Source: Thermodesulfobacteriota bacterium (GTDB lineage: Bacteria > Desulfobacterota > Desulfarculia > JACQYL01). Taken from it: a DNA stretch of 64,000 bases. Both the position numbers and the translations under genes were made by a program. This document shows positions 51,900-53,514 of the stretch, in pieces. A model generated the notes under the pieces. It saw nothing but the letters and a program-made list of their open reading frames with translations. It searched no databases and was not told where the DNA came from. Position 1 is the stretch's first letter; each line of letters opens with the position of its first letter. Location: contig CAXXLZ010000002.1 of NCBI GenBank assembly GCA_963675595.2, positions 4,096,001-4,160,000 on the forward strand, given 5' to 3'.

Positions 51900-52256
51900 G
51901 CTTGAGGATTTGCGGGGAAAAACTTTCGAGAAAGTTTTTCCCCGCACCCCTTTTCAAAGCGTTCCAAGTGATCCTCGCCGCCTTCGGCGGAGAGGATCAC
52001 GGCGGGAATGAATATCGTGACCGGCAACCTGTGTTTAGAGAGTGCCGAACCCCGATTGCGAAGCGTAACCGAGCAACCCGCTTAAAAAGTTTAGGAAGCA
52101 ACTGTGTTCTTTGTCAACTGAGTTGTTTGTCACTGATTCCTATGAAGCTGTAACACGGCGCTTGCTAGGCGCGGCACGCGTGGGGCTGCCGCGCGCAAGC
52201 ACCGCGCCACAGCAGACCACGGCAGCATCGGTTAACCGATGTGATACATAAACCGG

Positions 52257-53225
52257 TCAACTTAATGTGTCTTTGACACCGATTTCAGGCTGTTGGACGC
52301 GCCAATGAGTATTGGTTTTGACCATGCTGTTCAGTATGGTCAGAAGCTTACGCATACAGGCAGTCATAGCCACTTTGTGCGCTTTTCCAGCTTTAGTAAG
52401 CCGTTGGTAGAAGGCTTTGATTACCGGGTTTGAACGGGTGGCGGACAAGGCGGCCATGTGCAATACGGCCCGAATCTGGGCGCGGCCTCCCCAAATAGAG
52501 CGTTTCCCTCGCATCTTCCCGCTGTCACGATTCAGGGGAGCGACTCCCACCAGGGCGGCGATCTGCTTACGGTTCAATGCCCCGAGTTCGGGTAAGCGGG
52601 TCAGCAGAGTCGAGGAGAGAACGTGTCCCACTCCGGGCACACTTTGAAACAGAGCGTCTTTTTCCCGCCAAATGGGAGATGCCCGAATCGCCTTGCGGAG
52701 TTCCCGGTCCAAGTCCTCAAGGCGCTTCTGGAGCCACGAGATATGGGCCTGGATATCCTTGTGCAGAGAGGAGTGAGCGCTTCGAAGACGGTTCTTCTCG
52801 GCGGTCAACATGGTTATGATTTGTCCACGCCGATCGGCCAGAGCAGTCAGCGCTCGCAGCTGGTCGTCCTTCAAAGGCCGAATTTGCGGCCGGACAGCCT
52901 GGGCGAAATGGGCCAGGACTGTGGCGTCTATGCGATCGGTTTTTGCCAGTATTCCTTTGGCCTTGGCAAAATTACGAACATGTCGTGCATTGACCACGGT
53001 CACATTCAACCCGGCTCCGGCCAAGGCGCTCGCCACCGGAGTCTCAAGCCCACCGGTAGCCTCCAAGACGATCATGGAGGGAGGAAGATTTTTGAGATGG
53101 TTGATTAAAGCATCAAAATCGGTTTCATGGTTGGTCATCGACCAGGCTTCCTCGCCGGGAACGACGGCGATTTCAAGCCGGTCCTTGGAGACATCGATTC
53201 CCACGAAACAGGTGATCTCGCCCAT
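52257..53225 (-). CDS. IS110-family recombinase
   Basis: [34 protein letters not shown] and ACMRKLL. Confidence 0.95.
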
Positions 53226-53234
53226 GATAACTCC

Positions 53235-53420
53235 TCTCGTACCCAACCTTGCAGATGCGGCCTTAAAAGGCCGGGCAACTGTACGGGTTATCTCGAGGAA
53301 GGACATGACGGCCCAAGCTTCCAAACGGAGTCCATTTCTCCTGGGGGTCCGGCGGCCTGTCATGTCCGTGACCAACTTTGCGGGTCATGCCGTCTTCCAT
53401 TAAGTATGAAAGATGGCATG
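53235..53420 (-). ncRNA. Bridge RNA
   Basis: 5' hairpin followed by guide segments matching the target (CGGACCCCC, GGAAG) and donor (ACAGTTGCC, TGCAAG). Confidence 0.8.
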
Positions 53421-53514
53421 CTAAATATACAAGGGGTCCGGGAAACCTTTTTCAAAAGTTTCCCCGGCCTGTTATTTCTGTTTTTTCGATAGGCTTACTT
53501 TTACTTCTTCCTCC

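Follow-up and report, generated by a model that had tools for sequence, protein, structure and literature searches.

A probable bridge-RNA insertion sequence of the IS621 type whose guides match a rare variant of a REP-like repeat in a Thermodesulfobacteriota genome

The DNA analyzed here (the window) is a stretch of 64,000 nucleotides from a Thermodesulfobacteriota bacterium (GenBank assembly GCA_963675595.2, contig CAXXLZ010000002.1, positions 4,096,001 to 4,160,000 of the forward strand). It contains an insertion sequence (IS) of the IS110 family that is 1333 bp long (52099-53431), lies on the minus strand, and has a CT core at both sides, seen as AG on the plus strand at 52097-52098 and 53432-53433. 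In transposase orientation, the element consists of a 206-nt left end (LE; 53226-53431) encoding a bridge RNA, a recombinase gene (52257-53225; 322 amino acids plus stop, with AGGAG upstream of the ATG), and a noncoding right end (RE) of 158 nt (52099-52256); it interrupts a repeat resembling repetitive extragenic palindromic (REP) sequences. Very probably it is an autonomous insertion sequence belonging to the IS110 subgroup, IS621 type. It is a clear new example of the mechanism described in 2024, not a new mechanism: bridge RNAs, REP targeting, a split promoter and handshake guides of IS110 elements are already in print (PMC11208160, PMC11208158, PMC12288879). The sequence anatomy, the homology of RNA and protein to IS621, the covariation, the copy number, and the insertion sites are observed directly.

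The genome (6.79 Mb in 3 contigs, of which C2 is the one holding the window) contains seven full copies of the element, and all seven have CT on both sides, in the arrangement flank-CT-TGTATATT...ACAGTTG-CT-flank. The donor left arm, ACAGTTG, occupies 52105-52099 in the RE, and the donor right arm, TGTAT, occupies 53431-53427 in the LE; the joined ends read ACAGTTG-CT-TGTATATT. Excising the element with one core restores the target, CGGACCC-CT-TCCTAAAC, just as the original prediction wrote it. In the left half of the split repeat (53434-53467), a hairpin, CCGGGGAAAC..GGTTTCCCGG, leads into CGGACCC, the left arm of the target, and this left flank folds at −17.5 kcal/mol; the right half (52053-52096) is made up of TCCTAAAC... 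(the right arm of the target) followed by the linker and the second of the two hairpins. Searches with nhmmer placed the left half at C2:4149432-4149467 (positions 6-43 of the repeat hidden Markov model [HMM]) and the right half at C2:4148053-4148098, which is window 52053-52098 (HMM positions 42-87).

The recombinase matches PF01548 (DEDD_Tnp_IS110) over residues 8-150 (E 2.5e-25) and PF02371 (Transposase_20) over residues 191-274 (E 1.4e-18) in Pfam, and scores 231.2 bits against the NCBIfam model NF033542, "IS110 family RNA-guided transposase," whose cutoff is 140. It also matches PDB 8wt6 E (E 4.1e-38) and, over residues 6-306, the ISCro4 transposase (PDB 9t56; E 6.3e-38); the likeness to ISCro4 is one of sequence match only. 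Identity to the IS621 transposase is 32% over 310 amino acids, and the closest relative in our species collection shares at most 59% protein identity. In the N-terminal RuvC-like domain, the motifs GID, LEATG, and KTDRID align with IS621 GID, IEATG, and KTDTVD; which residues make up the DEDD tetrad of the recombinase we take as an assumption. In the C-terminal Tnp domain, S235 aligns with S241 of IS621, the catalytic serine (PMC11208158). With S235 present, an open reading frame (ORF) intact in 7/7 copies, and a score well over the NF033542 cutoff, the recombinase deserves the description "intact" that it was first given.

The LE, identical in all seven copies and folding with a z-score of −3.96, carries on the minus strand four guide segments at the coordinates given in the original prediction, which had named them left target guide (LTG), right target guide (RTG), left donor guide (LDG), and right donor guide (RDG), after the layout of IS621 bridge RNAs. 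LTG CGGACCCCC (53343-53351) matches 8/9 bases of the target CGGACCC-CT, and LDG ACAGUUGCC (53274-53282; ACAGTTGCC as DNA) matches 8/9 bases of the donor ACAGTTG-CT; the mismatch is at base 9 in each. RTG UGGAAG (53323-53318) fits the reverse complement of CT-TCCT at 5/6 bases, and its sixth base fits the 3/7 copies whose right arm is TCCA or TTCA. RDG UGCAAG (53253-53248) forms five Watson-Crick pairs and one G.T wobble with the reverse complement of CT-TGTA; this one-base departure, already visible in the original prediction, is the same G.T wobble that is termed noncanonical at IS621 position 161 (PMC11208158). The right guides are each followed by two handshake bases, CU (53317-53316) in the target loop and GU (53247-53246) in the donor loop, so that the two segments as a whole span 53316-53323 and 53246-53253.

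The guides sit in internal loops bounded by stems. The target-binding module (53301-53367) has an outer stem, GGACAUGAC.GGCC / GGGCC.GUCAUGUCC, and an inner hairpin, GGAG...CUCC; the donor-binding module (53231-53300) has a stem of CCC (53287-53285) with GGG (53244-53242) and an inner hairpin, CGGCC-UUUUAA-GGCCG. Both loops belong to the left-end RNA, upstream of the gene. To assess this structure, we used 80 loci (L020-L099) that encode relatives of the recombinase at ≤59% identity. Removal of three false motif picks (L053, L064, and L098) and of near-duplicates at ≥93% left 38 relatives; 36 of these entered alignments A1 and A2, two (L040 and L054) being omitted as close to L039 and L052, and the 36 relatives plus the element gave a covariation alignment of 37 sequences. 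Across its four helices (22 pairs), 91.3% of cells were paired, against 36-48% when partners were slid by 1-3 columns, and 18/22 pairs showed compensatory changes on both sides; none of 500 shuffles reached any of five observed measures. Compensatory changes occurred in all 11 pairs of the outer stem of the target loop, and the donor-loop helices 3 and 4 had 100% and 94.6% of cells paired.

A covariance model (R2) built from the 36 relatives, with the element itself left out, found a single match in the window, at 53224-53375 on the minus strand (92.4 bits, E 3e-25), with 22/22 pairs standard. In the genome, the RNA covariance model matched exactly the places of the seven copies and no others. 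Applied to Escherichia coli NZ_CP042969.1, model R2 gave ten 164-nt matches (38.9-39.2 bits), each directly upstream of a gene that PGAP annotates as "IS110-like element IS621 family transposase." In the IS621 locus used here (L109), the RNA extends 177 nt from its predicted start to the ATG, and its G53, A81/U82, G161, and G166/U167 fall at the positions named in PMC11208158; because the numbering agrees, the E. coli RNA is therefore the published IS621 bridge RNA. Model R2 also scored two other E. coli loci above the 39 bits of IS621, L101 (1883586-1883736; 79 bits) and L102 (4448928-4449076; 71 bits), at one of these, the gene downstream is of the IS110 family and is annotated as a pseudogene, with an internal stop. 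In a distant search of an E. coli collection, matches covered only 11-31% of the element at 66-72% identity, and the first region examined was a pseudogene, not IS621, which was located with the RNA model.

In the covariance-model alignment, the guides of the element and IS621 correspond column for column, which supports the layout originally proposed. LTG CGGACCCCC aligns with AUCGGGCCU (IS621 bases 50-58); GAAG of the RTG plus handshake CU aligns with GUAG plus AU (bases 77-82, that is, G77-G80 and A81/U82); LDG ACAGUUGCC aligns with ACAGUAUCA (bases 123-131); and UGCAAG plus GU is the same in both RNAs (IS621 bases 160-167, including G161-G165 and G166/U167).

The agreement between guides and DNA is more than chance, judging by the shared ends of the seven copies, the IS621-homologous columns, and a permutation test on the relatives. 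For the last, the 14 nt after the AGRYCG anchor were compared with the 9-nt left flank of the same element in 30 nonredundant elements. The best match of this LTG region to its own flank averaged 6.27/9, compared with 4.41/9 for the flanks of other elements, and 0/2000 permutations reached the observed mean; misanchored rows (e.g., L053, L057, L062, L085, L088, and L099) were kept, which lowers the own-flank mean.

Several properties of the RNA weigh against reading it as a working bridge RNA. Rfam has no family near threshold (the best rows, at E 0.56 and worse, are chance microRNA matches on the REP hairpins), which is why the upstream RNA regions of relatives were aligned instead. When the RNA is folded by itself, stretches of the left and right guides pair with one another in the minimum free-energy structure, and the mean probability of being unpaired is 0.38-0.55. 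The IS621 RNA behaves alike (0.39-0.59 for its guides), and since this proven RNA is similarly paired, the free-energy fold does not count against the bridge-RNA reading; the stems supported by covariation place the guides in internal loops, where the original prediction expected them. In both loops, the left guide carries a C that faces A at the second core base: the two right guides pair with the CT core, whereas the two left guides pair only with the core C. In the IS621 screen, pairing with the core on both strands was strongly preferred (PMC11208160). Finally, the second handshake base is U in both loops and cannot pair, leaving only one handshake pair per loop.

The core mismatch can be followed through the copies and relatives. 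It was described at the outset as the same T-to-C change in both left guides, and C does replace U at base 9 of both. This C is found in all seven copies, including one with 15 substitutions, and no other letter occurs at the guides in any set of assembled contigs examined; the element has therefore spread while carrying the mismatch. As far as sequence can tell, such spread is a small natural counterexample to the core-pairing preference. Base 9 of the LDG varies among 30 elements (15 T, 9 C, 5 A, and 1 G), with one of the T rows (L053) a mispicked motif. In the LTG, C at base 9 is unusual: of 15 elements with a flank match of at least 7/9, 13 have T, 1 has G, and only the element studied here has C. 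In IS621 itself (L109), LDG ACAGUAUCA against the donor ACAGTAT-CT has A as its ninth base, and there, too, the bottom strand has no pairing at the second core base. We think it rather doubtful that C at base 9 of both left guides is a working design feature instead of noise; if it is one, the natural reaction either would not need the bottom strand to be paired at the second core base or would be tuned by that pairing.

At handshake position 7, the C of the target loop faces the donor G and the G of the donor loop faces the target C, and neither base pairs with its own DNA (C against C and G against G). In IS621, A pairs with donor T, and G with target C, following the handshake logic described for that element (PMC11208158).

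The target repeat, about 90 nt long, has two hairpins, of which the first reads GGGGAAACC..GGTTTCCCC, separated by a linker. Across the whole genome, nhmmer returned 189 repeat hits at E ≤ 0.01, 121 of which span the insertion point. Four of the seven copies split a repeat hit at HMM positions 42-44, one flank covering positions 2-44 of the model and the opposite flank 42-87. The exact 12-mer CGGACCCCTTCC is absent from the genome (1.55 occurrences are expected for independent, identically distributed letters) and hence from all 121 repeat members that span the site, which makes the preferred target, CGGACCC-CT-TCC, a rare variant of the repeat; the four occupied repeats, if restored, would give the only four exact 12-mers. 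Of the 92 sites with one mismatch, 10 are in repeats, and most of these 10 differ in the core (CA or TT). The element is thus aimed at a rare variant of a repeat family and every exact site is filled; exhaustion of the exact targets in the host, if that is what we see, would be a self-limiting state. Unoccupied repeat sites that retain the CT core come closest to the target at CAGACCCCTTCC (C1:516364), which would keep a G.T wobble with the LTG, and CGAACCCCTTCC (C2:4314026).

For the three other copies, nhmmer found no repeat hit nearby. One (C2:1017339) is inserted at CGATCCC-CT-TCCA, with a left arm matching at 5/7. The other two (C2:2630235 and C2:255973) have an extra C before the core, CGGACCCC-CT and CGCACCCC-CT, and by hand count the LTG fits them at 5/9 and 4/9 in frame and at 9/9 and 8/9 when shifted by one base. 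These insertions look like register slips on the C run, in which case off-target insertion could come about naturally through one-base bulges. To the right of C2:255973, the flanking sequence is similar to a second repeat family. The claim that the element is programmed against a REP family needs narrowing accordingly: it stands for the 4/7 copies that split the REP-like repeat, and even there for a rare variant only, while 3/7 copies lie outside this family. The targets of those three are nonetheless related to the guides, so that no copy sits in an unrelated sequence.

The copies point to recent movement. LE and RE are identical across all seven; five copies are identical throughout, one has a single substitution, and one has 15. 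Every substitution falls within the coding sequence, and 11 of the 15 in the diverged copy are silent, the other 4 altering the protein. Such a distribution of changes is indicative of recent spread with selection acting on the protein, and the element appears from its sequence to be a well-preserved, recently active bridge-RNA member of the IS110 family. The element, with the same guides, also occurs in assembled contigs of two other organisms and a marine sediment metagenome; a near search of a plasmid collection left it unmatched. The assembled contigs examined showed no clean empty site that skips exactly 1335 nt. One contig that skips 1334 nt across the element was considered and not counted: an exact empty site would skip 1335 nt, the shorter side is 26 nt, the intervening letters were unread, and we read the contig instead as a paralogous repeat with one extra T. 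In the orthologous spacer of a related organism, covered by one contig, both flanks match at ~92% identity and 1359 nt are skipped, so that the element and 24 nt of the hairpin are missing; this hints, if weakly, that the element was inserted at the window locus.

By analogy with IS621, we propose the following cycle, in which transcription, circle formation, RNA-protein binding, and catalysis are all modeled on that element. Excision would join the RE to the LE in a circle, setting TTGACA of the RE (52117-52112) and TATATT of the LE (53429-53424) 17 nt apart as the −35 and −10 elements of a σ70 promoter; our sequence scan found both hexamers and the 17-nt spacer of the junction promoter as originally predicted. 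This promoter would transcribe a bridge RNA of ~190 nt, likely starting at about 53419-53417 as judged from IS621, and probably the recombinase mRNA too. The RNA would fold into a 5′ stem-loop and two stem-bounded internal loops, the first presenting LTG and RTG, complementary to both target strands, and the second presenting LDG ACAGUUGCC and RDG UGCAAG, which would pair with the circle junction ACAGTTG-CT-TGTAT. Once the top strands have been exchanged, the first handshake base after each right guide (C for the target loop, G for the donor loop) would pair across with position 7 of the noncognate DNA. Strand exchange at the CT core and insertion of the element, preferably at CGGACCC-CT-TCC, would be the work of a tetramer of the DEDD/Ser recombinase.

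In the integrated state, the same TTGACA lies 18 nt from TAAACT, which belongs to the conserved AAACT motif of the repeat (52088-52117, minus strand; 10/12 to consensus). TTGACA/TAAACT is a possible outward promoter, predicted from sequence, which would be antisense toward the 3′ end of a tyrosyl-tRNA synthetase gene (50541-51899, plus strand). At this place, the motif differs among the other REP insertions.

The data must be weighed against other explanations. The element could be a bridge-RNA IS by descent that is no longer mobile, its guide matches being a record of past insertions. Such a fossil would account for the lack of a polymorphic empty site in assembled contigs and would agree with the finding that no exact 12-mer is unoccupied, which leaves nowhere perfect to go; the mismatch of both left guides with the core might itself abolish activity. 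The seven copies with identical ends and intact ORFs (five of them identical throughout), the C at base 9 that they all share and that the element carried as it spread, and the 11/15 silent changes of the diverged copy make loss of mobility improbable. A different proposal is that the protein reads DNA structure, so that the target is chosen mainly by the REP stem-loop and the guides play a minor part. We rate this still less probable. It draws on the predicted hairpin, of −11 to −29 kcal/mol, that ends 0-9 nt before the core in 6/7 copies, and on ISPpu10, for which a preprint reports that a target stem-loop adds specificity; in that account, however, the structure is a layer added to guide pairing and does not replace it (10.64898/2026.03.19.712850). 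Moreover, the 121 hairpin-bearing repeats that span the site include no unoccupied exact guide match, while the occupied sites match the guides; the hairpin of copy 3 is weak (−5.6 kcal/mol), yet its site has a left arm of 5/7 and CT-TCCA; and the LTG covaries with the flank across relatives.

Elements of the IS1111 type have their guide RNA on the 3′ side of the gene. The RE does hold a very stable hairpin (it folds as a whole at −70.8 kcal/mol, z-score −4.54), as might be the case if the element were of this type, with a seekRNA encoded downstream of the recombinase gene. All four guides and the two-loop RNA are upstream of the gene, however, the RNA model has no match in the RE (52099-52256), and the LE (206 nt) is longer than the RE (158 nt), so we give this assignment a practically negligible probability. 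The RE hairpin itself is long, GC-rich, and imperfect (52140-52215, minus strand), lies downstream of the stop codon, has the same sequence in 7/7 copies, and is not followed by a T run.

The bridge-RNA element of the IS621 type that we favor resembles IS621 of E. coli (Durrant et al. 2024, PMC11208160; Hiraizumi et al. 2024, PMC11208158; sequence from NZ_CP042969.1, locus L109) in its order of LE RNA, recombinase, and RE; its CT core, donor right arm TGTAT, and donor left arm beginning ACAGT; its RDG UGCAAG, whose G.T wobble likewise falls at donor position 12; its 9-base LTG and the core-binding AG in both right guides; handshake pairing of each loop with position 7; a promoter whose −35 is in the RE and whose −10 is in the LE; and a natural target inside a REP, with a natural mismatch tolerated. 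It differs in having only 32% protein identity and an LE of 206 nt compared with 191 nt (PMC11208160). Base 9 of the LTG is C instead of the U of IS621, and base 9 of the LDG is C instead of A. Only one handshake base per loop can pair in the element, its RTG can pair with as many as 4 bases past the core, and its target, CGGACCC-CT-TCC, lies in an unrelated repeat.

ISPpu9 and ISPpu10 of Pseudomonas putida, compared by description (PMC12288879 and 10.64898/2026.03.19.712850), are likewise multicopy IS110-family elements inserted in REP or conserved intergenic repeats, with a stem-loop beside the target. ISPpu9 also has seven copies (PMC12288879). It has a small RNA gene downstream of the transposase, moves in a modular fashion, and is reported to leave separate downstream modules in P. 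putida (PMC12288879); for the element studied here, only two RE remnants were found. These solo RE remnants consist of the last 86 nt at 90% identity (C2:1729086-1729180; L008) and the last 72 nt at 84% identity (C2:734816-734896; L009); each lies directly after the hairpin of a second repeat family (GGGGAGGACTTTCGGGAAAGTCCTCCCC...), followed by CT-CCCAAAGCACGTTGGAC. Their left break points differ, and the genome has no solo left end. They may be old insertions that lost the LE and the gene.

The relatives in the alignment form a clade of IS110 elements from uncultured genomes (Chloroflexota, Gemmatimonadota, Pseudomonadota, and others; L020-L099) with the same bridge RNA architecture. Clade and element share the conserved segments AGAYCG, AGC, CCCGAACAGTTG, and GCAAGG, and left ends that read CTTGTAT; the element differs from most of the clade by one extra base between AGRYCG and the inner stem, and from all of it in protein sequence, the best identity being 59%. 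With 32% identity to IS621 and ≤59% to the relatives found, it could therefore add diversity to panels of orthologs, although it or a close relative might be among the orthologs screened in the bridge-recombinase papers of 2024 and 2025. Its value is that of a clean natural case, in which guides, donor, targets, and natural off-targets can be read from one genome with seven near-identical copies. Three of its features could be put directly to experiment as design points: the C that faces A at the second core base in both left guides, the single handshake pair in each loop, and the insertions that slipped in register on a C run. The points of interest (exhaustion of the exact target, register-slipped off-targets, and the unpaired second core base in the left guides) are modest, and the known mechanism is unchanged by the core mismatch, the single handshake pair, or the register slips.

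Between the synthetase gene and the split repeat, positions 51901-52000 hold a member of another repeat type, with one hairpin, GGGGAAAAACTTTCGAGAAAGTTTTTCCCC, and a second containing GGCGGAGAGG. The hairpin in this repeat is the sole terminator-like hit of our scan, and it gives chance microRNA rows in Rfam.

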